A model generated the notes under the pieces. That model saw only the letters and a list, made by a program, of their open reading frames with translations, made no database searches and was not told the DNA's origin. 54,565 nucleotides of DNA from a virus (taxonomy: Duplodnaviria; Caudoviricetes), in the IMG/VR virus record IMGVR_UViG_3300001844_000164, positions 1 to 54,565 of that record; one strand, given 5' to 3'. How positions within the stretch are numbered: position 1 is the stretch's first letter; the number at the start of each line of letters is the position of its first letter. The translations under genes and the position numbers were made by a program. This document shows positions 536 to 32,900 of the stretch, piece after piece.

Positions 536-895
536 GTGCAATCCTTCGTTATCAAGGCGAACGACTCGAAGCCTGACCTGGTGGCTACGCTCGAGGACGC
601 TTCCGGCGCGGTCGACCTGACCGGCGCGACGGTGCAGTTTCGCCTGGCGTCGACGACTGCGGTGACGTCGGACTGCGGCGACACCCAGTACAAAAAGAAC
701 GCGGTGCTGTGGACCAAGTCCGGCCTGGTGACGAACGCCACGCAGGGCGCGGTCAAGTTTGTCTGGAGCGCCGCGGACACCGCGACGCCTGGTTTCTATC
801 TCGGCGAATTCGTCGCGACGTTCACCGGCGGCGCGAAGCAATCCTTTCCGACCTCGGGGTACATCCCGGTCATCATCAACGAATCTCTCTCGTAA
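536..895 (+). CDS. BppU-N-like fibre attachment protein
   Basis: IKxNDSxPxL...VDLTGATVQF...GAVKFVW...DTATPGxYxGEF...SFP pattern typical of BppU N-terminal-like domains. Confidence 0.7.
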   Translation: MQSFVIKANDSKPDLVATLEDASGAVDLTGATVQFRLASTTAVTSDCGDTQYKKNAVLWTKSGLVTNATQGAVKFVWSAADTATPGFYLGEFVATFTGGAKQSFPTSGYIPVIINESLS

Positions 896-901: not shown

Positions 902-1297
902 ATGCCTAAATCCACCTACCTCGCCAACAAGCTGCTCGACCTCCCGGTCGGCGCTGTCGCCTTCACCGCCCCCGCGACGCTTTACTTCGCGCTCTACACC
1001 TCCGCGCCTGGCGTGGGTGGCGGTGGAACGGAAGTCACGGGCGGCAGCTACGCCCGCGCTTCGCTCACCAACAACACGACGAACTTCCCGGCCGCCTCTT
1101 CTGGCTCCAAGTCGAACGCCACGGCCATCACTTGGACGACGGCGAGCGCGTCCTGGGGCGTCGTGACGGCGGTGGGTGTGTTCGATGCCGCCAGCGCCGG
1201 CAACCTGCTCTACTTCGCCACGATCTCCTCGAAGACGGTCGACGCGAACGACACCGTCTCGATCCCGGTCTCGAACTTCACGCTGACCGAGAGCTGA
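902..1297 (+). CDS. Small beta-rich virion/fibre-associated protein (ALYTSA...EVxGGSY family)
   Basis: STYLANKLLD...LYFALYTSAP...EVTGGSYAR...WGVVTAVGVFDAASAGNLLY, a widespread phage structural family. Confidence 0.8.
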   Translation: MPKSTYLANKLLDLPVGAVAFTAPATLYFALYTSAPGVGGGGTEVTGGSYARASLTNNTTNFPAASSGSKSNATAITWTTASASWGVVTAVGVFDAASAGNLLYFATISSKTVDANDTVSIPVSNFTLTES

Positions 1298-1311
1298 TCG
1301 CCTGACCTGCG

Positions 1312-4300
1312 GTGCAAGCCGACGTTTCCAATACGTCGGGCGCCGTCAGGCTGGCCCCGCCAGACTCGGGCCAGGCGATCACCGCCCCTTCCGCGTCGAC
1401 GACTCACGTCGCCGGCGCGGAGGCAGCGGCACTCTCCTCTCCCGCGCCCGCGAGGGCGTCGACAGTCGCCGGCGGATCGTCGGTCGAGGTCGGCTCCCTC
1501 CAGGTCACCGCCAGCGCGCCAGCGCGCCCGGCGACCTCGTTGTTTGCTGACCTGGCTGCCAGGATCGCCGGCACGGTCCGCAACGCAAGCGAGGCGTTCA
1601 TCGATTTCGCGCACGCCGCCGCCCGGGCTCTGCTCACGATCGGAGCCAAGACGGTAGGGGTTGCCGTGGTTGCCGTGACGACCGTGGCGGCGGTGTTGCG
1701 CGTCCCCCGTCTGCTCGGGCCCTCGTCATCCGGTTCGTCCGTCGTCTCGTTCCTGCTGCGGCGGACGGCCCTGCTCCTGGCATCCGTTGCCGGAGGCACG
1801 ACCCTCGCCGCGGGCGTGGCCTTCCGGCACTCGGTGACCGGGTCTTCGGCCGGGAGCACCGGGGTCTCGGTCAACCTGGTTTCCTCGGTCCCGGTCTCTC
1901 CGTCCGTCTCCGGCGGGTCCACCCCCGTCTTCCGGGCGTTCTCCTCCGTACCGCTCGCGGCCGCTCCGTCCGGTTCGTCGTCCATCGCGGTGTCGTCCGT
2001 ATCATCTGGCCGGATACAGGCGGCCCAGGTGGGGTCGACGAACGTGTCGATCGGGGCGTTCGCCCAGTTGACGTCCCAGTTCTCGAGCGACGGGCTCACC
2101 GGGGTTTCGATCTCCGCGGTGAAGGATGCGATCAATGGGGTCGCGATGACCGGGTCGTCCCTGGTCGGTGTCGAGCTTGCGTCGTTCTGCCGATCGACTG
2201 CGTACTCGGTCGGGTCTTCCTCGGTCTCCGCTGCGCCCGAGGTGGCGATGCTGCTCCCGTCCGGCTATCTGGAGATCTTCGGATACGGTCTGCTCGAGAC
2301 GTCGGATAGCCAGTTCCTGGTCCAGTCGAACGACCTGCTGTTTGATGGCAGCACGTCGGTTTCCGCGTCGGTGGCTGGGTCCGTTCGCCTGGCGTTCGAT
2401 TCGTCCGGCGCCACGTCCGTTTACATCCGCGATCGGTTCTCGGTTTCGGCAAGCGGATCAACGGGTGTTGCGGCTTCGCTTGCAGCGTCGGCGCCGCTTT
2501 CCGCTTCCGCTTCCGGTCAAGCCGGCGTCGCCACGGCCGCTTTTGTGGTCAGGCCGCTGTCCGGGTTCGAGGGATTGCTGTCCTCCGACGGAGAGCTGCT
2601 GGTCGACTCCGGAGGCGCGCAGCTCATCGCCAGGTCTCATCGCGTCGGGGTTGATGGGTCCGCTGCCGCGTCGGTTTCCGTCGCAACGTCTGCGGCGGTC
2701 AGCGTCCCGTTGTCCGGGACCACGGGCGTCCTGGTCGGGCTCAACGAGTCGGTTCCGATTCAGGCCACGGTCTCCGGCGCGTGCGCGGCATCGATTCAGA
2801 CCGCGGCGGCGTGCTCGTCCGCGTCGTCCGTTTCCGGGGCCACATCAGTCTCGTCGGCCCTCTTCAGGTCTCGTCCAGTTGCCTGGTCCTCTTCCGGTTC
2901 AACGTCCGCAGCGTTTATTCCGGCGTCGGCAGTTATCGTTGGCTTTAATTCTTCGGGGTCTAATTCAATCTCGATCGGCTTTGCCGGTGATGTGATCGCG
3001 CCGGCCTTTTCCGGGACCACGTCAGTTTCCGCGTCGGTCTTCTCGAGCGTTCCCGTTTCGTTTGTTTCGATTGGGTCGACCGCGGCATCCGCCGTTTCGG
3101 CCCGCGTCGTTCTGCTCGATGCGCTTGGCGACCTGGTGACCGACGCCGGGGAGGCGATTGTTGACCAATTTGGCAACCCTCTCGGCGTCCCCGGCAGCGT
3201 CGGGACCGCCGGATCTTCCTCGGTGTCAGTCTCGAGGGTTGACGCATCCGTCCGCCTTCTGGCGTCGGCGTCCGGCTCATGCTCGACCTCTGCATCGATC
3301 GTGGACAGCCGGCTTGCATCGGCATCGACGGCCGGGGCGACGTTCGTCTCGGCGCAAACGAGCCGCTTCCGGCGCACTCCCGTTTCTTCGGCCGGGGCGA
3401 CGTCAGTCTCGGCGGCTACCGTTGCTGACGTGCGGCCGGCGGCATCGGCGACAGGGGCTGCATCAATCTCCACGTCGCTGTTTGCGACGGTCCCGCTGTC
3501 GGCTTCAGCCTCCGGGTCTTCGTCGCCGGCGTTCTCGCTCACCGGCGGCAGTTCGTCGTCTGTCGCCGTCGCCGGGTCCTCCCTGGCATCGTTCTCCCTG
3601 GCGTCCTCCGCGCCCATCTCGGCGTCTGTCTCTGGCGCCACGTCCGTCGTTCCGTCGGTGCCGACGTCGTCTGTCATCCTGTCCGGGTTTCTGGACGCAT
3701 CCCCCGGCGGTCTCCTGGTCGGGTCTGATGGCGGATACCTGGTGGGCGACGGAATGGTGCTCGAGGGGGCGACGGCGGTTGCCGCGGATACGCAGTCCCA
3801 GACTCGCGCCCAGGTCACCGTGTCTGGGGTAACGTCAACCACGGTTTCCGTTGCGGCGCTGGCGCCCGTCGCAATGGCAACTTCCGGTTCCACGTCGGCC
3901 GCCGGATCTCTGTTCACGTCGGCGCTCCTTCAGGCGGCATCGGCCGGGTCAAGCTCGGTTGCCGGCGACACGTCCTCGTCAGCCCGGGCGTCCGTTTCCT
4001 CGGCCGGCAGCACCTCGGTTGCGGTCACTACCGCTGGCGCCGGGACCAATTCGGTTGCCCTGGTTGGCTCCACCTCGGTCGCTGCGGCCCCCGGAGTGGC
4101 CTCCCGCCGCGGTTTCTCGTCCTCCGGGTCGACATCGCCGGCGGCCACGGTCTTTTCCAACGTCCCCCTGGCTTTCAGCTCGTCCGGGTCGACGTCAATA
4201 GCTGCTGCGGCTCCCCAGGTTGAGTATCTGTTTGACGGATACCTGCTGACAAGCGCCGGGGATTACCTGGCGACCTCGTCCGGCGATCTCCTGGTCGGCT

Positions 4301-7300
4301 CCGGGCAGGTTTTCGACGGGAAAACGGTCCTGGATTGCACCCTGTCGTCGGTTTGCGCGGCGCCTACGTCGATTTCAGGCTCCTGCGCGGTGTCGACAAC
4401 GACCGCGGTGCTGGTCCCGGTGGCGGTAGCGGCGTCAGGGGCAACGGGATCGTCGATTTCAGTCTTCGCGTCGGTCCGGGCGTCGTTTTCGGCGACTCTG
4501 ACCACGACTCTGGCCGCGACTCTGGCCTCTCATCGCCGCGTTTCGGCCTCCGTCGCGGGTTCGTCGTCCGTTTCTGCGGTAGCCTACGGGTCAGTTCCCA
4601 GCTCCGCGGCAGTTTTTGGATCTTCCGTCGTTTCCGCAGTCGTTTCAGGGTCAGTTCCAGCCTCCGCGTCTTTGTCCGGGTCCACTTCGGCCTCGGCTGC
4701 GACGCAAATTGCGACCGTTCTTTCCGTCTCGAGCTCCGGTTCGTCATCGGTGGCTTCGACGACGTCTGCGAGCGCCCCGGTGATCTTCTCATCGGCTGGC
4801 TCGTCGGCGGTTACCCTGGCCCCGCAGGGAAGCAACCTCATGTCCGCCTCATCCGCGGGGTCCACGACAGTTTCTGGCGCCCTGGTCGGATCTGTTCCGG
4901 AATTCGGCACCTCCGCAGGGTCCACGTCGGTGTCGGTGACGACTACGGCGGCGGCATTCGTCGCAGCGTCGTCGTCCGGGTCGACCTCGGCCAGCATCAG
5001 CACCGCGTCAGCGGTTCCGGTTACGGCTTCCTCTTCTGGCTCTTCGACAGTCGCCGCAACGGTCAACGCCGCCGGCGTCAATTCCTGGAACTCCTCGGGC
5101 TCAACGTCGGTTTCGGCGTCCATCGCTGCGGCGGCGCGAACGGCGTTCGCTTCTTCTGGCTCAACCTCCGCCGTCGTCACCGGCTCCGCGGCCGGCGTAT
5201 TGTCTGGCACCGCGTCAGGCGCCACGACGGTCGCCGGCGCTGTTTTCGCGTCAGTTCCCGCGCCCACCGCTTCGTCTGGATCAACGTCTGCCACGGCGAG
5301 CATCGCGGCCGACGCCAGGGCTTCCGCCGCGGTCTCCGGGTCGACGTCTCCCGCGTTTTCTGTCGCGTCCTCGGTCCCGGTCCAGACGGCCGCATCGGGC
5401 GCTACGTCGGTCGCAATCACCGCGCCGTCGGCAGTCACGTTGCAGGACGGATTCTTCACCACGTCTGACGGCCACCTTCTTCTCGCTTCCGACGGTTCAT
5501 ACCTGGTTGGTGCGGGCCAGGTCTTCGACGGAGCGACTGCGGTGGTTGCGGACACGCGGGTGACTTCGTCCGTGTCTGTGGCGTCGTCCGGTTCGACTTC
5601 TCTGGCGGTTAGCGCGATCGCCACGACCCCGGTTGCGGCGGCATCCTCCGGCGCCACGTCCATCTTTGTGACGCCGATCGCCAGCGTTTCAGCCTCTGCT
5701 TCGGTGACCGGGAATTCCGCGCCAGCGTTTTCTGTTTTCGATTCCAGGCGTGCTTCCGTTTCTGCGTCTGGCTCCACTTCGGTCTCTTCTGCGATTGTTT
5801 CGGCGGTTCCGATTTCGGTGTCTCTTTCTGGTTCCTCGGCCGTCTCGGCGACTAGCGTTGCCTCGGTCAGGTCTTCGTTTTCATCGTCCGGAGCCACGGC
5901 GGCGTCTGCGTCAACCGCCATCTCGGCGAGCATTCAGGCGAGTGCATCCGGGTCCACTTCGGTCGCCGGCTCTACGGTTTCCGACGTTCGTTCGCTGTTC
6001 TCTTCGTCTGGCTCAACGCAGATTTCTTTTCCGCTCCTCGGCTCCGTTCCTTTGGCCGGAACGTCGGTCGGATCAACGTCAGTCGCCGGAATCCTGGTCG
6101 GCGCCGTCCCGGAAAACTCCGTCTCATCCTCCGGGTCGTCTGCGGTCACGTTCAACGTCGTCGGAGCAGTTAGGCCGCCCCTGGCCCTGTCCGGCGCAAC
6201 CGCGGCATCAGCCACGACCGCCATTGCTGCGGCCGTTTCGGCATCCTCTTCCGGATCGACGTCAATACTGGCTGCTTTTTCTGGTACAGTACCTGTTGCT
6301 GCGACTTCTGTCGGATCGTCGGCTCTTTCGTTTACGACTGCCATTGCCGCCAGGATTTCAGCAGCATCGTCCGGCTCCGCGTCGGTTGCGGTTGGGACGG
6401 TTAGCGCGTCGACAACTTCGTCCGGGTCGACTTCCGGGTCGACCAGCGTCACGGGAAATGTCGCCGCTTCTGTACCCATCACGGCTTCCTCGGCAGGGAA
6501 CTCAACCGCATCGGTTTCTACGGCTGCCTCGGCCACTATCCAGGCAAGCTCGGCTGGGTCCTCCGCGGTAGTGTCCAACGCGGTCGGAGCCGTTCGCGTC
6601 ACGTTTGGTTCCACCGGAGCCTCCTCTGTTTCCGCTTTGCTGCCCGGTTTCGACGGGCTCCTGGACGGATTCCTTCTCACTTCTGACGGTCACCTGCTTC
6701 TTGCCTCCGACGGTTCCTACCTGGTTGGCGCGGGTCAGGTTTTCGACGGGTCTACGTCGCTTCTCGTCGACACGCGGATCTCTTCATCCGTCCCCGCGGC
6801 GTCATCTGGTTCAACATCGGTCGCCGCGAACGCGATCGCGAGCACTCCGGCAATGGCGGCGTCCTCCGGCGCCACGTCAGTCTCTGCCACGGCGATCGCC
6901 ACCGTGCGTGCGGTGGCATCCGTCTCCGGCGCTTCCACTCCGACCTTTTCCGTCGCCGACGCCAGGCGGGCGGTCGTCACCATCTCCGGGACCTCGTCAA
7001 TTTCAGCCTCGGTCTTTTCGACGGCCCCTGTCGCGGCGTCTGTTGCGGGTTCCTCCTCGGTCAATGCGACGGCGATCGCTTCAGTCAGGTCCTCGCTATC
7101 CTTGTCCGGGTCCACGGCGCTTTCGGCGACGACTGCGGTCTCGGCAACCGCGTCGGCGTCTTCGTCCGGATCGACGTCGGTTTCTGGAACTACCGTGGCG
7201 GCAGTTCCTGTTTCCGCGTCGTCGTCCGGTGCGACGCAAGTCATATCTGCACCTGCCGGAGCCGTGTACCTGGTGGGCGCTTTGTCCGGGTCCACCGCCG

Positions 7301-8553
7301 TGTCCGGCATCCTGGTCGGTTCTGTCCCCACCACCTCGGTCTTGTCCGCCGGCGCGACTTCGGTCGCGTTCAACACGATCGCGGACGTCCGTCCGTCGTT
7401 CGCGTCGTCTGGCGCCACCACCATGTCGTCGACGACAGCCATCGCCGCCGCCACCGCCGCGAGCTCCGCCGGATCGACGACCGTTTCCGCTGCGTTCTAC
7501 GGCAGCGTCTTCTTGTCGTTCACTTCCTCTGGGTCGACGACCGCCTCTAGTACTGTCGTCGCCGCGGCGCGCACTTCCTACACCTCCTCCGGAGCCACTT
7601 CGCTCTCCGTCGGTGCAGTCAACGCCACCACCACTTCCTCCGGATCAACTTCCGGGTCCACGACGGTCTCCGGAGCTATCTCCGCAGCAGTTCCTGGCGC
7701 CGCATCCATCTCCGGCTCCACCGCGGTTTCCGCGGCGACTGCGGTTTCGGCCCTGGTTCTCGCCAGCTCGTCCGGCGCAACGGTGCCGGCCGCAAACCTG
7801 TCAGGCACCGTCCGGGTCACTTTCAGCTCCGCCGGTGCCACGTCTGTCTCTGTGGCCGCACCGTCGTCCGTTCCTCTCCAGGATGGGTATCTGGTAACCT
7901 CCGACGGTCACTTGCTGCTCGGTTCCGACGGAACCTACCTGGCCGGCTCCGGCCACGTTTTCGACGGCGCCACGTCCGTCTCGGCCGGCACGACGATCGC
8001 GGCGACGATCCCCGCCTCGTCGTCGGGCTCAACCTCTGTTTCGGCTTCGGCGGTCGCGTCTGTTTCGTCCTCTGCGACCTCCGCCGGTTCCACGTCCGTC
8101 GCCGCCTCCCTGGCGCCGCAGGTCCGCGTCACTTTCACCTCCGCCGGTTCTACGTCCAGCGCGGTCACCGCGGTGGCGGCCGCGCCCCTTTCTGCGACCT
8201 CCGCCGGTTCCACGTCCGTCGCCGCCTCCCTGGCGCCGCAGGTCCCCGTCACCTTCAGCTCCGCCGGCTCCACTTCCAACGCGGCCACGGTGGCGGCTGC
8301 GGTTCCGTCCTCTGCGACCTCCGCCGGCTCCACGTCCGTCGCCGCCTCCCTGGCGCCGCAGGTCCGCGTCACTTTCAGCTCCGCCGGAGCCACTTCCAAC
8401 ACCGCGGCGACGGTCGTCGCGGCGGCCGTTCCCGTGTCTATCTCCGGGTCCAACAGCATCTCCGTCGCCTTTGGCGCCGACCCCAAGTCCCTCCTGCTGG
8501 ACAATGGCGATTACTTCGTCACGTCCGCCGGGTCCACCCTTGTCACGTCCTAG
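1312..8553 (+). CDS. Giant Ser/Ala/Thr/Val/Gly-rich repeat protein (2413 aa), putative virion filament/scaffold
   Basis: 7.2-kb uninterrupted ORF; ~20-aa period SxGSTSVSA; very few charged residues; sits among fibre genes; start codon uncertain. Confidence 0.8.
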   Translation: MQADVSNTSGAVRLAPPDSGQAITAPSASTTHVAGAEAAALSSPAPARASTVAGGSSVEVGSLQVTASAPARPATSLFADLAARIAGTVRNASEAFIDFAHAAARALLTIGAKTVGVAVVAVTTVAAVLRVPRLLGPSSSGSSVVSFLLRRTALLLASVAGGTTLAAGVAFRHSVTGSSAGSTGVSVNLVSSVPVSPSVSGGSTPVFRAFSSVPLAAAPSGSSSIAVSSVSSGRIQAAQVGSTNVSIGAFAQLTSQFSSDGLTGVSISAVKDAINGVAMTGSSLVGVELASFCRSTAYSVGSSSVSAAPEVAMLLPSGYLEIFGYGLLETSDSQFLVQSNDLLFDGSTSVSASVAGSVRLAFDSSGATSVYIRDRFSVSASGSTGVAASLAASAPLSASASGQAGVATAAFVVRPLSGFEGLLSSDGELLVDSGGAQLIARSHRVGVDGSAAASVSVATSAAVSVPLSGTTGVLVGLNESVPIQATVSGACAASIQTAAACSSASSVSGATSVSSALFRSRPVAWSSSGSTSAAFIPASAVIVGFNSSGSNSISIGFAGDVIAPAFSGTTSVSASVFSSVPVSFVSIGSTAASAVSARVVLLDALGDLVTDAGEAIVDQFGNPLGVPGSVGTAGSSSVSVSRVDASVRLLASASGSCSTSASIVDSRLASASTAGATFVSAQTSRFRRTPVSSAGATSVSAATVADVRPAASATGAASISTSLFATVPLSASASGSSSPAFSLTGGSSSSVAVAGSSLASFSLASSAPISASVSGATSVVPSVPTSSVILSGFLDASPGGLLVGSDGGYLVGDGMVLEGATAVAADTQSQTRAQVTVSGVTSTTVSVAALAPVAMATSGSTSAAGSLFTSALLQAASAGSSSVAGDTSSSARASVSSAGSTSVAVTTAGAGTNSVALVGSTSVAAAPGVASRRGFSSSGSTSPAATVFSNVPLAFSSSGSTSIAAAAPQVEYLFDGYLLTSAGDYLATSSGDLLVGSGQVFDGKTVLDCTLSSVCAAPTSISGSCAVSTTTAVLVPVAVAASGATGSSISVFASVRASFSATLTTTLAATLASHRRVSASVAGSSSVSAVAYGSVPSSAAVFGSSVVSAVVSGSVPASASLSGSTSASAATQIATVLSVSSSGSSSVASTTSASAPVIFSSAGSSAVTLAPQGSNLMSASSAGSTTVSGALVGSVPEFGTSAGSTSVSVTTTAAAFVAASSSGSTSASISTASAVPVTASSSGSSTVAATVNAAGVNSWNSSGSTSVSASIAAAARTAFASSGSTSAVVTGSAAGVLSGTASGATTVAGAVFASVPAPTASSGSTSATASIAADARASAAVSGSTSPAFSVASSVPVQTAASGATSVAITAPSAVTLQDGFFTTSDGHLLLASDGSYLVGAGQVFDGATAVVADTRVTSSVSVASSGSTSLAVSAIATTPVAAASSGATSIFVTPIASVSASASVTGNSAPAFSVFDSRRASVSASGSTSVSSAIVSAVPISVSLSGSSAVSATSVASVRSSFSSSGATAASASTAISASIQASASGSTSVAGSTVSDVRSLFSSSGSTQISFPLLGSVPLAGTSVGSTSVAGILVGAVPENSVSSSGSSAVTFNVVGAVRPPLALSGATAASATTAIAAAVSASSSGSTSILAAFSGTVPVAATSVGSSALSFTTAIAARISAASSGSASVAVGTVSASTTSSGSTSGSTSVTGNVAASVPITASSAGNSTASVSTAASATIQASSAGSSAVVSNAVGAVRVTFGSTGASSVSALLPGFDGLLDGFLLTSDGHLLLASDGSYLVGAGQVFDGSTSLLVDTRISSSVPAASSGSTSVAANAIASTPAMAASSGATSVSATAIATVRAVASVSGASTPTFSVADARRAVVTISGTSSISASVFSTAPVAASVAGSSSVNATAIASVRSSLSLSGSTALSATTAVSATASASSSGSTSVSGTTVAAVPVSASSSGATQVISAPAGAVYLVGALSGSTAVSGILVGSVPTTSVLSAGATSVAFNTIADVRPSFASSGATTMSSTTAIAAATAASSAGSTTVSAAFYGSVFLSFTSSGSTTASSTVVAAARTSYTSSGATSLSVGAVNATTTSSGSTSGSTTVSGAISAAVPGAASISGSTAVSAATAVSALVLASSSGATVPAANLSGTVRVTFSSAGATSVSVAAPSSVPLQDGYLVTSDGHLLLGSDGTYLAGSGHVFDGATSVSAGTTIAATIPASSSGSTSVSASAVASVSSSATSAGSTSVAASLAPQVRVTFTSAGSTSSAVTAVAAAPLSATSAGSTSVAASLAPQVPVTFSSAGSTSNAATVAAAVPSSATSAGSTSVAASLAPQVRVTFSSAGATSNTAATVVAAAVPVSISGSNSISVAFGADPKSLLLDNGDYFVTSAGSTLVTS
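8071..8430 (+). repeat. 120-bp tandem repeat x3 (40 aa) in the giant ORF
   Basis: tctgcgacctccgccggYtccacgtccgtcgccgcctccctggcgccgcaggtc starts at 8071, 8191 and 8311. Confidence 0.9.
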
Positions 8554-8574
8554 AGAATTCAATACGCTCCTGTC

Positions 8575-9012
8575 ATGGCCACCAGAATCAAAGACATTGC
8601 CAGCACGGTCAGCACGCCGACGACCGACGACTACATCGCTCTCGACGGGTCAACGAGCGGCACGCGCAAGATGATCCTTTCGGACCTGCGCGACACGAAG
8701 GGCAATGTGCGGGCGATTCCGCAGAATTCCCAGACCTCTGCCTACAGCCTTGCCGCGGCGGATGCCGGCAAGCACATCTCAATCACGACCGGAGGCGTCA
8801 CGGTTCCGAGCGGCGTGTTCTCCGCGGGCGACGCGGTGACCATCTTCAACAACTCCGGCTCGAATCAGACGATCACGCAGGGCGCCAGCGTGACGATGCG
8901 TCAGGCCGGCACCGCCAACACCGGCAACCGCACACTCGCGCAGTACGGTCTCTGCACCGTTCTCTGCGTTGCCTCGAACACCTTCGTCATCACCGGCAGC
9001 GGGTTGAGCTGA
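8575..9012 (+). CDS. Short fibre/adaptor protein
   Basis: N-terminal RIKDI...DDYIALDG...TRKMILSDL resembles the K/R-I-S/K-D/E-L fibre N-terminus; C-terminal YSLAAADAGK...ITQGASVT...LAQYG beta domain common in phage fibre proteins. Confidence 0.7.
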   Translation: MATRIKDIASTVSTPTTDDYIALDGSTSGTRKMILSDLRDTKGNVRAIPQNSQTSAYSLAAADAGKHISITTGGVTVPSGVFSAGDAVTIFNNSGSNQTITQGASVTMRQAGTANTGNRTLAQYGLCTVLCVASNTFVITGSGLS

Positions 9013-9013
9013 C

Positions 9014-9823
9014 ATGAGCATCGTCCAAGTCCTCGCCGCCGTCGACGACGGCTACCCGGTGGTGAACAACGCCACCGGCGGAGACGTCATCTATCGGATC
9101 GGCAAGTGGCAGTACCACAAATTCACTTCGGCTGGCACTTTTGAGTTCACCGTGATGGGCAACGGGTCGTTGCCCGTGAAACTCTATGTCGCATCCGGCG
9201 GTGATGGCGGTTTTTCAGCAGACGGTCGCGCTGGCGGAGGCGATGCTCCTACCAACGGCGCTAGTGGCGCACCCGGCGGAATGTACGGTTTTCAGGGCGC
9301 TTTGACCGCAAACAATTTCGGGATCAACTCCCCAAAAACAGTCACGATAGGTGCTGGTGGCTCTCCCGGCTTCGGCGGCTCGGCGTCGCAGATCGGTATT
9401 CACGGAGCAACGAATTACTCGAACACCAACGGAGGAGCTGGAGGATCGGGAGGAGCAGCCGGGTCTTCGTACACCAATGCTTTGGATGGAAATTCCGGCG
9501 GCAACGGGCAAAATATGTCGACCGAGTTCCCGAACGAAAGGGGTTACTTTTCTGGCGGTGGTGGTGGTGGCGGTGGCGGCGCCGGTGACGTCGCGTCTAA
9601 CCAAGGCGGCGGAGGCGCCGGTAACGGCGGCGGCGGTGATGGTGGTGGCGGCGGAGGTACAGGCTACGATGGTTCCGCCGCAAGCGACGGCCTCGCCAAC
9701 ACAGGCGGCGGCGGAGGTGGTGGCGGCGGAGCTGGGTATGATCCTAACAACGCCAACAACGGCGGCTCTGGTGGCAGCGGCGGCAGCGGAATCGTTCTCG
9801 TGAAATTCCAGTACGCAAACTGA
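9014..9823 (+). CDS. Glycine-rich fibre/receptor-binding protein
   Basis: ATGG...YHKFTSAGTF start, GGGGG runs, ANTGGGGGG and GGSGIVLVKF end, typical of phage Gly-rich domain proteins. Confidence 0.8.
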   Translation: MSIVQVLAAVDDGYPVVNNATGGDVIYRIGKWQYHKFTSAGTFEFTVMGNGSLPVKLYVASGGDGGFSADGRAGGGDAPTNGASGAPGGMYGFQGALTANNFGINSPKTVTIGAGGSPGFGGSASQIGIHGATNYSNTNGGAGGSGGAAGSSYTNALDGNSGGNGQNMSTEFPNERGYFSGGGGGGGGGAGDVASNQGGGGAGNGGGGDGGGGGGTGYDGSAASDGLANTGGGGGGGGGAGYDPNNANNGGSGGSGGSGIVLVKFQYAN

Positions 9824-9824
9824 C

Positions 9825-10127
9825 ATGGCACACTTTGCTGAAATCTCTACCGCCAACGTGGTGCAGCGCGTCTTGGTCGTGCCAGACGGTCAAGAGCATC
9901 GCGGCCAAGATTTCCTCGCCAACGACCTTCAGCTTGGTGGCGAGTGGATCAAGACCAGCTACAACACGCGCCGCGGCGTCCACATCCGCGGCGGAGTTCC
10001 GTTCCGAAAAAACTACGCCGGAATCGGGTACACCTACGACGCGACCCGCGACGCATTCATCCCACCCAAACCTGCGGGCGATAACTGGGTGCTGGACGAG
10101 GAGACCTGCTGGTGGGTCAAACCATGA
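9825..10127 (+). CDS. Conserved phage protein typically following Gly-rich fibre genes (possible chaperone)
   Basis: MAHFAEI...WIKTSYN...FRKNYAGIGYTYDATRDAFIPPKP...WVLDEETCWW signature. Confidence 0.8.
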   Translation: MAHFAEISTANVVQRVLVVPDGQEHRGQDFLANDLQLGGEWIKTSYNTRRGVHIRGGVPFRKNYAGIGYTYDATRDAFIPPKPAGDNWVLDEETCWWVKP

Positions 10128-10555: not shown

Positions 10556-12217
10556 ATGGCCACCGTCCCCGAGGAACTCCTGCTCGCGCGCATCAAGCGC
10601 GAGAGTGAAGCTCGGGCCGCGGCCGACGCTGCTCTAGAGGCCGCCCTGGCCTCCGCTACGGCGGAATCAAAGCAGAAGATCGACGCCATCGCGTCCCGGC
10701 TGTCGGCAAAGATTGGGAGCTCCACGGTCACGTCGTCCGCGATCGTCGGCGAAATCAAGCGCACCCAGGTTGAGCCTGGATTCGCGCTGGCGGAAGACCT
10801 GCTGACTCTCCAGGCGACAGTCACCGACGGACAGAACACCAGCGCGGCCAGCGTTGAGGAGCTGCGCGTCGCGATGGCGGACCAAAACCAGGCGTTCGCC
10901 CAGGACGTGCTCACGGTGAGGGCGCAGTTCAATAAGAACATCGCCCAGGTCACCGACGACATCACGGCCCAGGCCACGGCCAACTCGGCGACAGCGTCGC
11001 GAGTGACTACACTCGAGTCTACGGTCGCCAACCCGACGACCGGCCTGGCCCAGGCACATTCTCGGATCACGGCCGAGGAGTCCGCCCGGGCCACCGCGGT
11101 CGACGCGGTCGCGACGCGCACAACGACGCTGGAATCGACGGTCAACAACCCGACGACCGGCGTGGCGGCGACCTCCGCGAGGCTTACCACCGAGGAGTCC
11201 ACCCGCGCCACCGCGGACTCGGCGCTCTCCTCGAGGACGACTACCCTGGAATCGACGGTCAACAACGCGACGACGGGCGTGGCGGCAACTTACGCGAAGA
11301 TCGTAACCGAGGAAACGACTCGGGCCACCGCCGACAGCGCGCTCTCGTCGCGGGCCACCACGCTGGAATCGACGGTCAACAACCCGACGACGGGCGTTGC
11401 CGCAACCGCCTCCCGCATTTCGACGGTGGAGTCGACCTACGCCTCGAAGACCTACGCCGACACCAAGAAGTCCGAGGCGATCACCGCGGCCGCGGCCGAC
11501 GCCACGGCCAAAGTCTCGACGGAGTCCTCGGCCCGCGCTCAAGCCGACGGATTCCTTTCGGCGAAATACGTCCTGCGCGTCGATACCAACGGCCGCGTCG
11601 CCGGCATGGAGATCACGTCGTCAACCTCGGCGAACGCTGGAACGACGAACGAGATCAAGTTCACCGCCGACTCGTTCAAGGTCTTCAACAACAGCACCGA
11701 CATCTCGCCGTTCACGGTCGTCGGCGGAGTGGTCTACTTGACGAACGCAGTCGTCGAGCAGCTCAAAGCCAACATCCAGATCACCACCCCGAAAATCCTC
11801 GGCGGTCGTCTGGAGCTGAATGGCGAGTGCGTCGTCTGCACCAACCAGACCTCCGGCATCGTCCGCGTCAACGGTGGCGTCGGCGACGGCCCCGGGAACG
11901 GCGGCCAGGTTGATTGTTTCGGGTCAACGTGGCCGGGCCCTTACGCCGGCGCCGTGTTCATCACGCCGGCCAACGTAGGCACCGGCCATGTGCGGATTCG
12001 AGACCGCTCCGGTCTTGACCGAATCCACATCGACACGGCCGGACTCTGCAACGTGTCCAACGCCCGATTCAGCGACACGAATTTCAACGCGCATCCGAGT
12101 TCCAACAACCAGATCGAGTGTGGCGAGCAGCCTGGATCGACCAGCGGAACCTACCTCGCCATGCGCGTGAACGGCCGCACCGTCTACGTTCCCTTCTACA
12201 CTTCAGTCCCAACTTGA
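10556..12217 (+). CDS. Tail fibre/tip protein with coiled-coil repeats and DUF1983-like domain
   Basis: YVLRVDTNGRVAGM...FTADSFKV...PFTVVGGVVYLTNA matches the lambda-J C-terminal-like (DUF1983) pattern. Confidence 0.75.
   Translation: MATVPEELLLARIKRESEARAAADAALEAALASATAESKQKIDAIASRLSAKIGSSTVTSSAIVGEIKRTQVEPGFALAEDLLTLQATVTDGQNTSAASVEELRVAMADQNQAFAQDVLTVRAQFNKNIAQVTDDITAQATANSATASRVTTLESTVANPTTGLAQAHSRITAEESARATAVDAVATRTTTLESTVNNPTTGVAATSARLTTEESTRATADSALSSRTTTLESTVNNATTGVAATYAKIVTEETTRATADSALSSRATTLESTVNNPTTGVAATASRISTVESTYASKTYADTKKSEAITAAAADATAKVSTESSARAQADGFLSAKYVLRVDTNGRVAGMEITSSTSANAGTTNEIKFTADSFKVFNNSTDISPFTVVGGVVYLTNAVVEQLKANIQITTPKILGGRLELNGECVVCTNQTSGIVRVNGGVGDGPGNGGQVDCFGSTWPGPYAGAVFITPANVGTGHVRIRDRSGLDRIHIDTAGLCNVSNARFSDTNFNAHPSSNNQIECGEQPGSTSGTYLAMRVNGRTVYVPFYTSVPT
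11003..11430 (+). repeat. 117-bp (39 aa) tandem repeat, about 4 copies
   Basis: The L codon of LESTVxN falls at 11012, 11129, 11246 and 11363. Confidence 0.9.
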
Positions 12218-25606: not shown

Positions 25607-26995
25607 ATGCCCTTCGCCGAATTCTCCCCGGGCAACGCCGGATTGGCGCTGCCGCAGCAATCGTTCCAGAACGGCCTCGCCGCGATGCAAGCGGCCGGGA
25701 CGATGGCGGAGCACCGTGTGTCGCTCATGGAGCGGGCGCAGCGGATGGCGCAGGACAAGGAGAAGTTTGAGATGGAGAAGCAGCGGTTCGCTGACCTCCG
25801 CGTGCTCGACGTGATGAACATCGCGAAGAGCACCATCGAGCTCACGCGGCTGAACAATTCGTTGCAGCTCGACGACGAAAAGCTGCAAGCTGAAAAGGCG
25901 GCCACGGAGGCCCAGCTCCGGCAGTCGCGCAATCAGATCGCGGAGGACAAAGCGGCCGAGCAGTTGCTCGCCGACATGCCCCAGGCGCTCGCGTCGTGGA
26001 AGGACATCAAGGAAGACGACTACCAGGGACTGATGAAGGCCCAGGCCCGATTCAACCAAAGTTACGGCGCTCTATCGCTGAATCCGAAATATGCCGCGCG
26101 CGTCGCGCAGGTGGCCGGTCACCACATCGACACGCTGAATGCCCGCATCAACAGCGCGCTGAACCTGTCTGAAAACAGCGCGCTGGAGATCCGCACGCGC
26201 CTCGAGGACACGCTGCTGATGCCGGAGGCCACGCCGCAGGACCAGCAGCAGAAGACGAAGCTGCTGTCCGAGCTCCTCCGCTCTCCCGACGCTCGCCGCG
26301 CCCGCCTTTCGCCTGGTGAGCAGGGTAAGGCGCTCAACGCCGCCGTGCAGGGTGCGATGAAGACCATGATGGAGCGCCAGGCCGAGCTGGCCAAGATCAA
26401 CGCGACGGGCGATCAGAACCGCCAGACGGCCGCGGCCAAGGCGGAGACCGACAAGAAGGAGGCGCCGCAGTACCTCGTCGAGAAGTCGATGAAGATCGAC
26501 CAGACCGAGAAGGATCTCGCCGACCTTGAGCAGATGGCGAACAAGCAGGTCACCGGGCCGATCGTCGGATTCCTCCGCGGGCTCAACCCGTATGACACCG
26601 ACGCCAAGACGTTCGAGGCCAAGCTGCGCGCCGCCGTTCCGAACCTGGCCCGCGGCATCTTCTCTGAAGTCGGCGTTCTGACGGACACCGACATCAAGAA
26701 CTACATGCTGACGCTGCCGAACGTCAAAACACCGGAGGATCAGGTCAAAGCTCTGGTGCAGATGCTGCGCGGTACTCTTGAGCGCCAGCGGGAAACGCTG
26801 GGAGGCGTCGTCCAGGGGCAAGGTTACAAGACCGGCGGGTTGACGCTGAAAGGCGGCAAGGAAAGCGGCATGACCGACGGCCAGGAACTCACTCTGCCGT
26901 ACAACGGCTCCAACATCACCGGGACGGTCATCACGATGAACGGAAAGAAAGCTCTGCGTACTGCTGACGGCAAAGTCTACCCGATCAACCAATGA
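25607..26995 (+). CDS. Putative ejection protein 2
   Basis: Helical 462-aa protein with GVLTDTDI-type motif seen in ejection proteins; position. Confidence 0.6.
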   Translation: MPFAEFSPGNAGLALPQQSFQNGLAAMQAAGTMAEHRVSLMERAQRMAQDKEKFEMEKQRFADLRVLDVMNIAKSTIELTRLNNSLQLDDEKLQAEKAATEAQLRQSRNQIAEDKAAEQLLADMPQALASWKDIKEDDYQGLMKAQARFNQSYGALSLNPKYAARVAQVAGHHIDTLNARINSALNLSENSALEIRTRLEDTLLMPEATPQDQQQKTKLLSELLRSPDARRARLSPGEQGKALNAAVQGAMKTMMERQAELAKINATGDQNRQTAAAKAETDKKEAPQYLVEKSMKIDQTEKDLADLEQMANKQVTGPIVGFLRGLNPYDTDAKTFEAKLRAAVPNLARGIFSEVGVLTDTDIKNYMLTLPNVKTPEDQVKALVQMLRGTLERQRETLGGVVQGQGYKTGGLTLKGGKESGMTDGQELTLPYNGSNITGTVITMNGKKALRTADGKVYPINQ

Positions 26996-29900
26996 CCCTC
27001 GGAGACCCGATCACCCAGGACCCCAAGAAGAACTCCGGCCCGTCACTCGGGGCTCCCGTTTCCCTGGGAGCCCCGGTCGACCCTCTTGCCGAGGACACGC
27101 CGATCGAGGTTTTTGAGCAATGGGAGAAGTCGCTCCCGCAGCCCGGGCTGGCGGCTCAAGCCGGCGAAGTTGCCGCGCACTTCGGCGAGGGCCTCTACGA
27201 GGCGACCAAAACCGTCGCCGGACTGGGACTGAAGAATCTCCGCACCCTCGTAGACCCGACGCAGACGGTCGACGACAAGATGCAGACCTACAAGGAGACC
27301 GCGGCCACCGGCGCCGAGATCGCGGCGAATGCCTACAAGGGTTTCGCCGGCATGGGGTCGTACCTGGCTTCCGCCGGCCCCCAGGTGCGGAATGCGAGCA
27401 TGGACCTGCTGTCCACCGACGCGAATGAGCGCGCCGACGCACGCACCACCGCGGCCAAGGCCAGGCGCACGCACATGCGGAACATGCGCGACCTCTCGGC
27501 CTCGTCGAACGACGGCCGCGTGATGGCTGACGCGCTGTTCAACGCCATCGCCGAGTCTGCGACCAACGCCGGCATCGCCGGGTTCGACTCCAAGTCCAAT
27601 TCGATGACCGACACCAAGGTCAACGAGAAGGGCGCTGAATTCCTTTCCAACTTCGTCGATCCGGACATGGGCGCATACATCGTCCGGAAGGTCGCCAAGT
27701 GGGCCGGGAAGGACGTCGTCCGGAGCGAGGCTGCACGCCAGGCTGTCACCGATTTCCCGTACACCGGGAGATTCGCCGAGGCCCAGCGCGCCGTTGCCGA
27801 GGCGTCGAACAAGGTCGCCGAGAGTGAGTATTCGATGGAAGCCACCCGCGCCGCGGGCGGCGTGGTGCCCCAGGACATGGCCCTCACCCATGAGCGCCTG
27901 GTTAAGGAACAGGCTCAAGCCACGGTTCACTTCCAGAAGACCGTCGACGAGATGCGGAGGCAGCAGATGGAGCTGGGGCTCGAGAGCGAGCTCGGCAAGT
28001 CGACCGCCCAGGTCGCCACCGGCCGCGTGGTCGAGGGCGCCGGCAAGCTAGCCCAGAAGGGCGCCGATTTCGTCGGCAAGGTCGACGACGCGATCGACCG
28101 GATGCTGTCCCGGGCAACGGACGGAAGCGCCGCGGCCAGGCGGATGGCTGACCAGCAGGTCAAGAACGTGGTGCCTGGCATCGGCGCGCTGCCGGTCACC
28201 GAGAGCACTCTCCGCGGCACCGGGCAGTTCCTGGAGGAAGCCGGCCGCCTCATGGCGGAGCGCGAGTCCTCGCTGCCGTACTTCCAGAGCCTCAAGCGCG
28301 CCCTCCCGGAGGGCAGCGTAGGCCGCCGGGCGGCCGGAATGGCGGAGAATCTCGAGTTCCTGGCGAACACCGGGCGTTGGGCCTTCGACACCGCCGCAGA
28401 CGCCGGCAAAGGCGCCGCAATCGGCGCCGGATTCGGCGTCCTGGCCGGCGATACCTCCGGCGGAGCGATGCAGGGCGCACTCTTCGGCATGGTCGGCTCG
28501 CAGTACGGTCAATGGGCGAAGATGAACAGCCCGGAGCAGGTCTACCTTCAGCAGCGCGTCGACATCGAGAAGGCAAGCCAGCGGCGCGACGGCATGCCCA
28601 ACAACCAGAAGACCGAGTACGATGGGCTGTCCAACTACCAAAAGCTCCTGGTCGCGACCTTCGAGCAAGCGCACCCCGACCTCTCGATCAATTTCGTCCG
28701 CGAGAAAGGCCAAGGCGCCGCCGGCTGGTACGACTACAACGGCAAGGTCGGATCAGTCACGGTCGACTTGGACCACCCCACCCCGTTCACCGGGCTGCTC
28801 CAGCATGAGGTCAAGCACCACCTGGCGCTCAACCCCGAGGTTGCCCAGTCGGTCCGGACTCAACTCATCGGCGACCCGGATTCCGGGGTCCCTGGAGTGT
28901 TCGTCGAGCGGGACGCGGCCGGACGACCGATCGTCCGCGAGATCCCGGACGCCCAGGTGCCCGGGCTCGTCCGCCGCGAGTTCGCGCTGAACCAGGACTT
29001 CTACGCCCGCCGCGAGGAGTACCTTTCCCGTCTGCGGGACGCCGGCAAGCCGACGATCGACTACGAGCGCAGCAACGCCCGAATCGCCGAGGAGATCTGG
29101 GCCGAGCTCACCGCGGTCAACCTCATGCACCGCCAAGCGAACGGCCGATTCGACATCCTGGCTGAACAGGCGATGGGCCCGGTGCAGCGCCGGCTGGCCG
29201 ACATGTTCGCCAACAGCGACCTGGTCGCCAACTCGAGCTTCATCCAGAAGGCTCTGGGCAAGTTTGGCGTCGTCTTCGACGGGTTCACCGGCCGTGCGGC
29301 CAACACCGGGCTGTTCTCCGAGCAGCCGGACGTCCCGGGCATCCGGAACATGGTCGAGCAGTACTACCGGAAGAGCGACGACAAGCGTGCCGCCGATTCT
29401 GACCCGGAGACGCGCGACGTGCGGATGTACACCGAGGCGGAAATCCTCAAGTCGCCGGAGCTGATGGACATGTTCTCCGCCGGCCACGACGTCGTGCGCG
29501 ACCCGGTGAGCGGCAAGCTGCGTTTCACCTCCGAAAAGGAGGCGAAGGCCCGCGCCGAGGATTTCGTCAAGACCCTCACCCAGGAGCTCGACAGTTACGC
29601 CGGCAACGAAGCCGGGGTCGTCCGCCGCATGGAGACGGCCGACGAAAAGGGCCGCAAGCAGCTCGTCTGGATGGGCACCAGGATTCCGGAGGGAGTGATC
29701 GCGAAGATGGAGCAGAGCGGCAGGTTCAACGCCGTCCAGCTCCAGAACCTCCGCGTCCTTTCCGATATCCTCGGCGGCGGCCTCGGCAACGAGGTCAACA
29801 TGAAGTACCAGCCGGCGATGAAGCGCGGCGGCGCTCTCTACCGCAGCCGCCCGATCACCGACCGCACCGAGACGCCCATGACGATCCGGGTAACCCTGGA

Positions 29901-32900
29901 CGGCAACGTGGCGATCAACACGGTCAGCCAGGAGAAGTTGATCCGAAACGCCGTCAACGCGATCAAGCAGGGCCGCGCCGACCTCTTCGGAAACGATTTC
30001 CAGACGCTTTGGAAGGACATCAACACCTACCTGTCGAACCACGCCAACGGGCTTGCCGGCGACGCCAACGGCCTGGGCGTGGAAAAGAAGGACTTCATCA
30101 ACTCGCTCTTCGGGCAGCTCACGCTTCAGCAGCGTGACTTCAACCCGTTCCTCCAGGAGCTGTCGGTCAAACAGGCGCGCAACCTGGGCATCGTCCAGAC
30201 CCGCCGCCTCGACCGGATCAACCAGCTCCACACCCTGTCGACCACGTTCAAGCCGGACTACACCAAGGTCGCGCGCAATTACGCCCCCGGGTTTGGCGGG
30301 CGGCTCCGCGAGCAGGACTTGATCGAGGACCCGACGCGCTACTTCAAAAACTCGGACGGAACGCCGCGTCCGTTGTATCGCGGGCACTCCCACTCCGACC
30401 CGTTCCTAGCAAAGTCTGACAATACCGTCCCAACCTTCACGGACTCGAAGGACATCGCGGCAGTTTACGCCGGCGAACAAGCCGGAGCCAGAGTCGGCCG
30501 CTACACCGTCGACGTGCAGCGCCCGCTGAAGATCGGCAACCTGTTTGAGGACGTCGTCGAGTACCGCGACCTGGAGCAAGCCATCACAAAGTCCGGTGCC
30601 GTAAGCCCCGAGGAATTTCGCTCCTGGGCCGAGGAATTCGGCGCTCTGTGGCGGAACGAGGGAGACGAAAACACGCTGCGTGGTTGGGAGAAGGAAAACA
30701 TCGGCCTGGACGACATTTACACCTCGACGTGGTACGTCGCCGACAACGCAAAGTTCAAGGAATTGGCCGAGCGTGCCGGGTATGACGGATACGTCTACCG
30801 CGGGTCATTCACCTCGGAAGACAAGTTCCTGCGGGATTCAAAGAAGGTGGAGCAAGAGAGCAGCTACAACTACAGGACGCTGTCCTCGCTAGAGGCCAGG
30901 CCGCTCCGGCCGGAGCAGGTAAAACCGGCTCCGGTTGGTGAAGGTGAGAAGTTTTCACCTGGCGCCAGGCAACTTGGAGAGAACGCCGACTTCACCGCGA
31001 TCCCGACCGACGAGGAGCTGCGCGCCGCGATGCAGAAGGCGCACGGCGACAAGCCTGGGAGCAGGGCGGAAAAAATCGGCGGCGCCCGCGGTCTTGAGGC
31101 CGGCTACCCGGTCGACGTCCGCATCGACATTCCGACCTTCAACAAGTCGGGCGAGTACGCAGTCACGGTCCATGAGCGCGGAATCGGAACCGTCATCGGA
31201 TACGACAGCATGGTCGCAATCGACAACCCGACGTTCAAATCGAACGAGGCGGCGGCGGAGCGAATCCGCGATGGCAAGAGCAACAAGACCCCGATTGCTG
31301 TGGTGCGCGGCGACTTCAACCCGAGCCGCGACATCCCCAAGGACATCAACAAGTGGACCGCCGTCGGCTTCGACCCGGTCGACCACTCGTACTTCTACGA
31401 CAAGCGCACCGACGAGCCGGTGATCTCCGGCAAGAAGGCGATCAGCGTCGGCAACACCGTCTTCGTCAAGAACCCCGTCTACGGCAAGAAGTCTGGCGTC
31501 CGCTACTCTCCGGGAGCTAGTGCGCGGGATGCCGCCGAGGCGGCTGACTTTTCGACGCGCGAGAAGTACTACCACATCAGCGGAAAAAGCCTGGGTGCTT
31601 TGGACGACAAACGGGTGCTGTACATCACCCCTGACCCCAACTTCACGGGAATCAGCAGCGATAATCCCGCAAAAACATCCGACGAGCTGTGGTTGAAACG
31701 CGGCGCCAAAATTTTCGACGCACACCGCGACGCGGACAAACTAGACTTGCCCGCCAACCATAAGGCTCACAACGCCCAGTTGAAAGCCGCGTATGCCAAG
31801 GTCGAAGACCTAGGAATTGACGAGGTGTGGAAGAAAGACAGGGCCGCTTACGATACTTGGTACGCGGGAGACTACGCTTGGATCGAGGACCACATCGACG
31901 AGATCAGGGCGCTTGGGTACGACGCTTTCATCACCAGGGAAAACGGCACGAACAACCTTGGCATCCTCAACCCGGAAATTGTGAAGTCGGCAAACCCGAT
32001 TACGCGGGGGGACGACGGCAAGGAGATCCCGCTATCGGAGCGGTTTGGGCGGAGGCACGATGTCCGCTACTCCCCTGGCTCCGAAAAAGATCCAACGACG
32101 GGCCTTTATTCTCCCCTGGAGCAGACGCTGGCTGCGATCCCCGCAAAGGCCACGCGCCAGCAGATTGAAGCGGCGCTGCGCGATGGCGTGAAGGAAAAGG
32201 GTCAGCTCGTCGCCCGCCCGGCGAAAAAGGAAGAGATGGACGACGTCCGCGACGCGACCGGCCGCACGTTCACCGAATTCCTCAAGGATAACCCCCAGGC
32301 CACTCGCGAGCAGATGCTCGACTTCGTCCGGGAGAATCGCGTCAAGGTGACTCCGAACACCGGAGGAACGCCCGTTCACAAAGTGACTTTCGACGGGGAA
32401 GAGGGCGATTTCGCGCGAGAATACGGCACCAGGGCTGAAGCCTTTGCTGCGATCGAGGACGAGGTCCAGCGGCGTGCGGACGAGATCGTCCTAGACAAGG
32501 TCGCCGGCAAGATCGAGGACGATAGGACCGGGGAATGGCTCTACATCGACCACCAGGAAGGTTCTGACTTGTGGGAGGTCAAGATTGGCAGCGGCGTAAA
32601 CTCGGCAAGTAATCCCGCGTACACGGCTGCGGACATTCGGTACTATTCTTTCGATGAGGCGCTGATGGGCCTGGCCGAATACAAAAACAGGATTGTGCGC
32701 GAAGAGAGGCAGCGGTACGACGTCTCGACAGAAGGAGAAGAGGGTCGGTTCGCGCAGTACACGCTGCCGGGCGGTACTGATTACCGCGAGCACGTCCTGA
32801 CGTTCCCCGAACAGGGCGAGCGCATCAGCGGGCGAACCAAGTTCAAGGACCAGACCTCGGTCGATGAGTTCCTGACTGACATCTCGGCCTCCGGTCTCGA

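Follow-up and report, generated by a model that had tools for sequence, protein, structure and literature searches.

To our knowledge, chain-like fibres are so far on record for three podophages, in which between 3 and 11 dimers have been resolved. Zheng et al. are said to have described, in 2023 in J Mol Biol (435:168258), chain-like fibre I of the Ralstonia podophage GP4 as gp80 dimers on a separately encoded rope. The excerpted text of PMC13730344 presents gp80-like dimers as strung on a rope, each forming an augmented beta-sheet with a rope-like fibre-dock domain; five dimers are carried by the separately encoded rope of GP4, whose chain-like fibre is said there to dock onto the capsid, and eleven by the fibre-dock domain of the Pseudomonas podophage A1002, which is about 300 Å long and is made of gp39 residues 243-468, 3-32 and 96-107. 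The window analysed here is the whole of the IMG/VR virus record IMGVR_UViG_3300001844_000164 (54,565 bases, about 65% G+C), and its source is a temperate tailed phage in which a gene of the gp80 family directly precedes a gene for a giant repeat protein of 2,413 amino acids (aa). The window resembles GP4 fibre I (PDB 8JOU) in this succession of a gp80-family gene and a 20-aa-period repeat protein, and like GP4, the phage is temperate and encodes a tyrosine integrase as well as one protein of approximately 3,000 aa. GP4 differs in having five dimers and a candidate rope, gp79, of 325 aa, in contrast to the 2,413 aa and approximately 90 units of the giant protein, and no protein similarity between the two phages extends beyond gp80 and the integrase, the only matches of the window's proteins to GP4 by blastp; thus the phage is not a close relative of GP4. 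Like the A1002 nozzle-rope gp39 with its fibre dimers gp40/gp41, in which one polypeptide offers 11 serial docking sites for beta-augmentation and forms a flexible multivalent fibre, the giant protein would be a single serially docked chain; unlike it, the rope of A1002 is, in the same excerpts, a domain of a split nozzle protein that ends in an immunoglobulin-like domain, offers a single kind of docking site and has no side branches, and it has no sequence similarity to the giant protein.

The giant gene is the third of six genes in one same-strand run from 536-895 to 9825-10127. Two recurrent elements of this run are given letters here: M is a motif that interrupts the repeat array of the giant protein, and K is the type of N-terminus found on the 145-aa protein encoded next. 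The features of the run are as follows.

536..895, + strand: 119-aa protein at the head of the syntenic module, 73% identical to the protein at the equivalent position in locus L005; possibly a fibre or collar adaptor
902..1297, + strand: 131-aa gp80-like fibre protein (PF23140), the presumed beads of a chain-like fibre
1312..8553, + strand: 2,413-aa giant scaffold or putative rope, with an N-terminal head, about 90 units of 20 aa and nine M motifs
1312..2019, + strand: aa 1-236 of the giant protein, a conserved N-terminal region, 45% identical to the L005 homologue over 236 aa (E 7e-37); possibly the virion attachment point
8575..8715, + strand: K-type N-terminal plug (aa 1-47) of the 145-aa putative adaptor, recognized by the K-type profile and by alignment
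8716..9009, + strand: C-terminal beta-sandwich domain (aa 48-145) of the same protein, a widespread fibre-end domain
9014..9823, + strand: 269-aa Gly-rich protein, the presumed displayed head, a divergent relative of PF21722
9825..10127, + strand: 100-aa protein following the Gly-rich gene (phrog_7759, E 5.6e-28)

The reading favoured here, tentatively and with slightly more doubt than assurance, is that genes 902-10127 encode a branched chain-like virion fibre in which the 2,413-aa protein is the rope, bearing both gp80-docking units and nine adaptor sockets; the nine M motifs are probably sockets that each hold an adaptor with its Gly-rich head. In the proposed mechanism, the approximately 90 units of 20 aa, each with two predicted short strands, would bind the 131-aa gp80-like protein as dimers through beta-sheet augmentation, a step suggested because such docking has been published for the ropes of GP4 (5 dimers) and A1002 (11 dimers). 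Each M motif would then be a linear socket for the N-termini, of about 45 residues, of one adaptor trimer, which would be disordered on their own before capture, and the C-terminal platform of the adaptor would hold the Gly-rich protein. The outcome would be a fibre very roughly 100-250 nm long, by extrapolation from the 300 Å that A1002 uses for 11 dimers, with up to nine side branches.

The open reading frame (ORF) at 1312-8553 on the + strand is free of stops over 2,413 codons, and its product is dominated by S (581 residues, 24%), A (468, 19%), V (296, 12%), T (240, 10%) and G (223, 9%), with few charged residues (D 55, E 15, K 4). The body of the protein keeps a strict period of 20 aa (residue self-match of 0.272 at lag 20 versus a mean of 0.139), with a Gly invariant once per 20 residues in 12 aligned 120-aa pieces of the array, and it has a higher-order repeat of 406 residues (self-match of 0.276 at lag 406); the arrays that lie between the motifs sum to about 90 units of 20 aa. 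The DNA of two modules of 406 aa each (aa 1376-1781 and aa 1782-2187) shows 61% identity, with differences at 141 first, 87 second and 243 third codon positions, and since the differences are mainly at third positions, the giant ORF is a selected coding sequence rather than a chance open frame. Its syntenic homologue in L005 has 1,155 aa, with conserved ends and motifs and with arrays of differing lengths between the motifs. Neither Pfam nor PHROGs gave anything above noise for the giant protein or for the adaptor, and no relative of giant-protein residues 1360-1830 was found at E 0.001 or better among proteins of 1,327-4,223 aa. An AT skew of -0.33 to -0.39 over window positions 2001-8000, with T far in excess of A on the coding strand, is limited to the giant gene and is presumably a by-product of its Ser/Val/Ala codon make-up.

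The nine acidic/aromatic interruptions of the array that had been noticed in the sequence-only reading are present within a few bases of the positions assigned to them, and the example quoted there corresponds to aa 1785-1806. That reading had described them as a repeated LxxxDGxxL word. The nine repeated sites stand well above background, as is detailed below, and the description as one word did not hold: M is made of three or four tandem 8-residue units, phi-phi-phi-x-S/E-D/x-G-x, mostly closed by VFDG, and is an Asp/Leu/aromatic motif. The sites, with their scores on a 24-column profile, are listed below.

2251-2349, + strand: M site 1, degenerate, aa 314-346, 8.1 bits
2560-2631, + strand: M site 2, aa 417-440, 9.4 bits
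3109-3186, + strand: M site 3, degenerate, aa 600-625, 5.5 bits
3676-3771, + strand: M site 4, aa 789-820, 11.5 bits
4219-4320, + strand: M site 5, aa 970-1003, 13.9 bits
5437-5532, + strand: M site 6, aa 1376-1407, 16.6 bits
6655-6750, + strand: M site 7, aa 1782-1813, 18.0 bits; source of the segment used for co-folding
7873-7968, + strand: M site 8, aa 2188-2219, 17.7 bits
8488-8550, + strand: M site 9, aa 2393-2413, at the C-terminus, 5.1 bits; this C-terminal motif is kept in L005

On this profile, which was built in part from the nine sites themselves, they score 5.1-18.0 bits (seven of the nine at 7 bits or more), against a maximum of 4.4 bits in opposite-strand ORFs (525,027 residues). 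A strict regular expression finds ten matches in the giant protein; its overall rate is 0.08 per 1,000 aa in the translated ORFs of 170 sources, the window included (1.35 million residues). A loose periodic detector (0.23 matches per 1,000 aa) was dropped as too permissive, and the profile was used instead. By a hand count, 37 of the 55 Asp residues of the protein lie in the nine sites or within about 8 residues of them, and the sites make up approximately 12% of the protein.

A profile search of 1.84 billion representative proteins returned 47 at E 0.001 or better, 46 of which have between one and five LLLEDG-type motif copies by the 24-column profile; the same profile marked P0010 (3,819 aa) as a false positive, and it was rejected as a motif protein. 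The nine copies in the giant protein are the most seen. Five unrelated proteins of 250-430 aa (P0008, P0011, P0015, P0022, P0025) have three to five copies of the LLLE(D/N)G type, some with rope-like spacing, so multivalent sockets would not be unique to this phage. Relatives of P0008, P0011 and P0022 were not found in viral contigs, and P0015 had no match in the phage collection; P0011 matches two rhizobiophages solely through a motif-free domain, at loci that are without M, K and a gp80-like gene.

The evidence that carries the socket proposal is the joint distribution of M, scored with the motif profile, and K, scored with a profile of the N-terminus of the 145-aa adaptor type. The 175 sources scored were the window, 160 IMG/VR loci (the best 80 of 280 relatives of the adaptor C-terminal domain and the best 80 of 540 relatives of the gp80-like protein) and 14 stretches of named phage records. 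Both M and K are found in 19 sources, K without M in four and neither in 152, and no source has M without K (Fisher p 7e-22, with relatedness ignored). One of the K-alone sources, L150, was rejected, being a spurious opposite-strand ORF. The two genes are nearly always adjacent: in 17 of the 19 sources the start of the K gene follows the M gene by 32 nucleotides (nt) at most, L158 has two K-type genes abutting its M gene from upstream, and L100 has 1.4 kb between the M and K genes. This is the co-occurrence across phage genomes that had been proposed as a check on the sequence-only reading and whose absence was to refute it, and the association mentioned there, that fibres with such N-termini adjoin proteins with LxTEDG-like motifs, is borne out in the Roseobacter phages CRP-4 and CRP-5 and the Methylophilales phage MEP402. 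The positive sources are arranged as follows.

Architecture 1: the window and L005
Architecture 2: the Zobellviridae phages CRP-4, CRP-5 and MEP402, with a rope of 250-275 aa that bears the motif
Architecture 3: L100, with a 918-aa rope that has an N-terminal motif and a lectin domain
Architecture 4: L158
Architecture 5: twelve siphophage loci resembling gene transfer agents (GTA-like), in three sequence subgroups

In the twelve GTA-like siphophage loci, the motif forms the last 26 residues of a tail protein of 296-298 aa and the next gene encodes a K-type fibre of 806-1,141 aa; their motif was first detected by a regular expression derived from the window only, and their K ends by a profile that excluded them. 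A gp80-like gene is not present in these twelve loci, within the DNA scored, and M is not present in 93 of the 100 gp80-positive sources, where the fibres carry a different N-terminus; thus M travels with K, not with gp80. M and K are both absent from a further six cultured phages that are gp80-positive, and GP4, in which gp79 falls under the M threshold, is without a K-type fibre. Searches of PDB sequences with the 298-aa motif-bearing tail protein and with the K-type fibre gave nothing useful. The literature on chain-like fibres that was found included none on the M motif or the K-type N-terminus, which is not a claim that they are absent from print; the M-K plug-and-socket pair is defined here and is not a described family.

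Three gene arrangements among the loci have further features of their own. The region 8902-11716 of L158 encodes a tandem pair of paralogous proteins (250 and 252 aa), each with a K-type N-terminus joined directly to a Gly-rich body; next comes a rope of 434 aa, which bears an M motif at its N-terminus and has about 18 of the 20-aa units. At L100 10010-12766, the 918-aa rope consists of an M motif, a concanavalin A-like lectin domain (PF13385, E 4.3e-12) and about 30 units of 20 aa, and from this domain match it appears to carry a sugar-binding domain of its own. Among many loci in the range L097-L169 (for example L099 1609-2490 and 2499-4385), most ropes after gp80-like genes end in short W-T repeats, and the next gene encodes a fibre with an N-terminus that begins MADT(T/F)T(T)NL..TKPE and includes DTWG; the W-T rope ends and the MADT-type N-terminus could form another plug-and-socket pair alongside M-K.

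The 145-aa protein encoded at 8575-9012 begins with the pattern RIKDI / DDYIALDG / TRK as had been read from the sequence. Modelled alone by AlphaFold2, its N-terminal 47 residues have a predicted local distance difference test score (pLDDT) of 47-69, and its C-terminal beta-sandwich one of 96-98. The C-terminal domain has 280 relatives in viral contigs, where it caps ORFs of 125 to 1,663 residues (measured stop to stop) with many types of shaft, including collagen-like ones; because it ends collagen-like fibres, the adaptor is presumably a trimer. The domain shares 76.5% identity with its counterpart in L001 (5644-6297), which is Synechococcus phage S-B28 (marine T7-like), and such identity between a phage of 65% G+C and a marine cyanophage suggests recent horizontal exchange across very different phages. 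In Foldseek comparisons, the adaptor model matched residues 1-335 of CBA120 TSP4 (7rfo_B; E 9.6e-4, template modelling (TM) score 0.46, root mean square deviation (rmsd) 3.9 Å over 107 columns) and T4 gp9 (1qex, E 3.9e-3); the likeness to T4 gp10 was weak (2fl8, E 0.31), a Klebsiella phage baseplate protein was also resembled, and the similarity to gp9/gp10-type folds is moderate overall (TM 0.42-0.52). Residues 48-145 as modelled may thus have a fold like that of T4 gp9/gp10 and CBA120 TSP4. Domains of this type are platforms that hold further fibres or spikes. The adaptor C-terminal domain may be akin to the attachment folds of the branched tailspike complexes (CBA120 TSP4, T4 gp9/gp10), and unlike them it stands at the C-terminal end of many shaft types, with a Gly-rich PF21722 protein as its presumed client. 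The best Foldseek E-value, 3.6e-6, was to the capsid spike of Pa223, with a poor superposition (rmsd 15 Å). In the excerpted text of bioRxiv 10.1101/2025.06.11.659172, this spike, gp52 (PDB 9NY6), is trimeric and has its N-terminal 41 residues as its sole anchor, much as is proposed for the adaptor; unlike the adaptor, gp52 is described there as anchored to capsid proteins rather than to a linear motif, and its body is a triple beta-helix with a TNF-like knob.

The protein encoded at 9014-9823 is confirmed as Gly-rich. Its score against PF21722 Gly_rich_2 is 16.3 bits, under the cut-off of 24.3, with 23.9 for the L005 counterpart and 50.5-65.9 for the equivalently placed proteins of L008, L061 and L107; on these scores it is best called a divergent relative of PF21722, not a certified member. 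An adaptor-type C-terminal domain is followed by a PF21722 Gly-rich protein at many loci, and in L158 the K-type plug is fused straight to a Gly-rich body. This pairing and this fusion support a chain of scaffold, adaptor and Gly-rich head. The earlier proposal that the adaptor displays the Gly-rich head thus gains from a gene pairing conserved across loci, and the adhesive role that went with it is putative. The 100-aa protein encoded at 9825-10127 is a fourth conserved member of the adaptor module; its type of start recurs after the Gly-rich gene in the cyanosiphophage-like loci L044, L046, L061, L062 and L066.

Binding of the motif to K-type N-termini was predicted by co-folding three K-type N-termini (55 aa, alignment of 15 rows) with one motif segment (50 aa, alignment of 20 rows). 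The score was 0.53 (0.53, 0.56 and 0.50 in the separate runs), and the best of three controls scored 0.00; the runs share at least 82% of contacts, with a partner pLDDT of at least 55. Of 80 solved complexes, 58 pass the mark used, as do 2 of 110 mismatched pairs, a calibration that holds only roughly for custom alignments and three copies, and just 7 of the 80 solved complexes pass with a score of 0.60 or under, as do both passing mismatches. The co-folding test put forward with the sequence-only reading thus gave weak support, and the claim that the motifs recruit the 145-aa adaptor stands on strong comparative evidence and a weak structural prediction. That reading had also likened the fibre to the cellulosome scaffoldin (cohesin-dockerin), with which it would share a long scaffold, repeated sockets and short plugs that recruit modular subunits; unlike scaffoldin, to which there is no homology, the socket here would be linear, a motif some 30 residues long in place of a folded cohesin, and the plug is probably the N-termini of a trimer.

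The identification of the giant protein as a rope begins with its upstream neighbour. The ORF at 902-1297 matches PF23140 Gp80 ('Podophage GP4 fiber I protein gp80') at E 1.4e-37 and 129.3 bits, versus a cut-off of 27, with residues 4-129 covering profile positions 3-128 of 128, and is a member of that family; it also matches chain a of PDB 8JOU (E 4.4e-11) and phrog_240 (E 3.7e-20) and is 84% identical to its L005 counterpart. The giant gene begins 15 nt past the end of this gene, an order kept in L005 and in most gp80-positive loci. Because a gp80-family gene lies directly upstream, the giant protein is, by analogy, most likely an outsized rope of a chain-like fibre, and it has two properties of such a rope in adjoining a gp80-like gene and in consisting of serial repeat units. 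An unlikely alternative, and the one that survives best, is that the sockets exist without the beads: M would dock the adaptor, the array would be a self-folding or flexible spacer, and the gp80-like protein would sit elsewhere on the virion. The M-K evidence serves this alternative equally well, the array is unlike any solved rope in sequence, and the copy number of gp80-like protein that the rope would demand is very large. The distribution of repeats argues the other way: an ORF of at least 150 aa with a 20- or 40-aa period starts at most 3 kb downstream in 57 of the 100 gp80-positive sources, versus 51 of 1,874 other ORFs of that size. These periodic ORFs have a median of 253 aa, and the longest are those of the window (2,413 aa), L095 (at least 1,388 aa, running off the end of the contig), L005 (1,155 aa) and L100 (918 aa). 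Published ropes dock such dimers, and the array is not confidently predicted to fold by itself.

It is improbable that the giant protein is a rope without sockets, in which the M motifs would be hinges, fold-backs or ties to the capsid or tail and the adaptor would attach elsewhere or just at the C-terminal end. This would suit the capsid docking that the excerpts of PMC13730344 attribute to the GP4 chain-like fibre, and the 8-residue periodicity could make a small self-contained beta unit; the weakness of the co-folding result and three K-type fibres with no M nearby also favour it. Against it, none of the 19 M-positive sources has M without K, a hinge would be senseless in the twelve siphophage-like loci, where the motif is the C-terminus of a tail protein that is not a rope and precedes a K-type gene, and 93 of 100 gp80-positive sources do without M.

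It is very unlikely that the gp80-like dimers dock at the M motifs instead of at the 20-aa units. The adjacency of the gp80-like and giant genes suits such an arrangement, and nine sites would give a modest number of dimers like that of GP4 or A1002; the same 93 gp80-positive sources without M, the 12 of 19 M-positive sources without a gp80-like gene in the DNA scored, and the many ropes after gp80-like genes that are without the motif, which are most of them, speak against it. Barely credible is the idea that the giant ORF encodes no virion fibre, being a chance low-complexity frame in GC-rich DNA or a non-structural Ser-rich protein, which its extreme composition (AT skew -0.39), its want of a Pfam or PHROG family and of similar-length relatives at E 0.001 or better would allow, and which is opposed by codon-position differences of 141/87/243, by a syntenic homologue with conserved ends and motifs, and by the position of the gene inside a fibre module.

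Several results weigh against the branched fibre proposed here, in which gp80-like dimers and adaptors share one rope. On the side of the sockets, sites 1, 3 and 9 are degenerate (5.1-8.1 bits); the M+K positives include many relatives and amount to about five architectures, not 19 independent events; both profiles were seeded partly from positive loci; K occurs without M in L049, L059 and L091 (within the DNA scored), so that K-type ends can attach elsewhere; and the support from co-folding for binding of the motif to the K-type terminus is weak. On the side of the rope, it is by analogy alone that the 20-aa array, rather than the M motif, would dock gp80-like dimers. The array found no PDB sequence match at E up to 10, and with no similarity of sequence or fold to a solved rope, rope membership is by context and architecture only. 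The GP4 comparison is itself indirect: gp79 (325 aa), encoded by the gene after gp80, has a 20-aa period, its role as the GP4 rope is inferred, and it found no useful match in PDB sequences. AlphaFold2 gave a six-unit stretch of the array two short strands per unit with a mean pLDDT of just 52.5, a low-confidence model that fits a chain needing partners to fold, without proving so. Finally, with 45-90 dimers on each rope, a virion would have to carry the gp80-like protein in hundreds of copies, which is many.

Elsewhere in the window, the following two features place the module within a tailed phage genome.

12118-13968, + strand: ORF of the large terminase
40501-41802, + strand: tyrosine integrase (phrog_1, E 5.9e-40)

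The 119-aa protein that heads the module found no Pfam match and no meaningful match in PDB sequences, and its PHROG matches are weak and of unassigned function. Between the module and the terminase lies an ORF (10556-12217, + strand) for a tail-fibre protein of 553 aa (phrog_496, E 5.8e-13), which contains several repeats in tandem, each of about 37 aa and rich in T, E and S. The last 100 nt of this ORF are shared with the listed terminase ORF, so that the terminase probably has its true start at a later position. A second giant ORF at 26992-35898 (+ strand) encodes 2,968 aa, with matches confined to an L5 gp82-like segment at aa 1397-1485 (PF25735, 27.8 bits) and to phrog_586; its product may be a large protein of the virion interior, as with the 3,224-aa DarB-like protein of GP4, to which blastp found no similarity. 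Past the integrase, window positions 42000-54565 hold mainly minus-strand ORFs, two of them of 711 aa, which could be early phage genes or host flank.

A wider reading is possible and is offered with less confidence than the branched fibre itself: M and K would be a portable plug-and-socket code across unrelated tails (siphophage tail proteins, Zobellviridae ropes and the giant protein), in which a linear peptide built of three to four 8-residue beta units would capture the N-termini of a trimeric fibre, and nine sockets with about 90 gp80 units would make this the longest and most branched phage bottle-brush fibre known. If the branched fibre is real, a rope of 2,413 aa stretches the chain-like fibre design approximately ten-fold, and the addition of a second docking system, orthogonal to the first, makes the linear fibre branch. 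If the pairing of M with K is general, it would account for a widespread and unannotated motif of the LLLEDG type, would provide a sequence rule predicting which fibre joins which scaffold in uncultured phages, and would be of use, as a small and modular handle, for exchanging receptor-binding modules among phages in ordinary laboratory work on host range.

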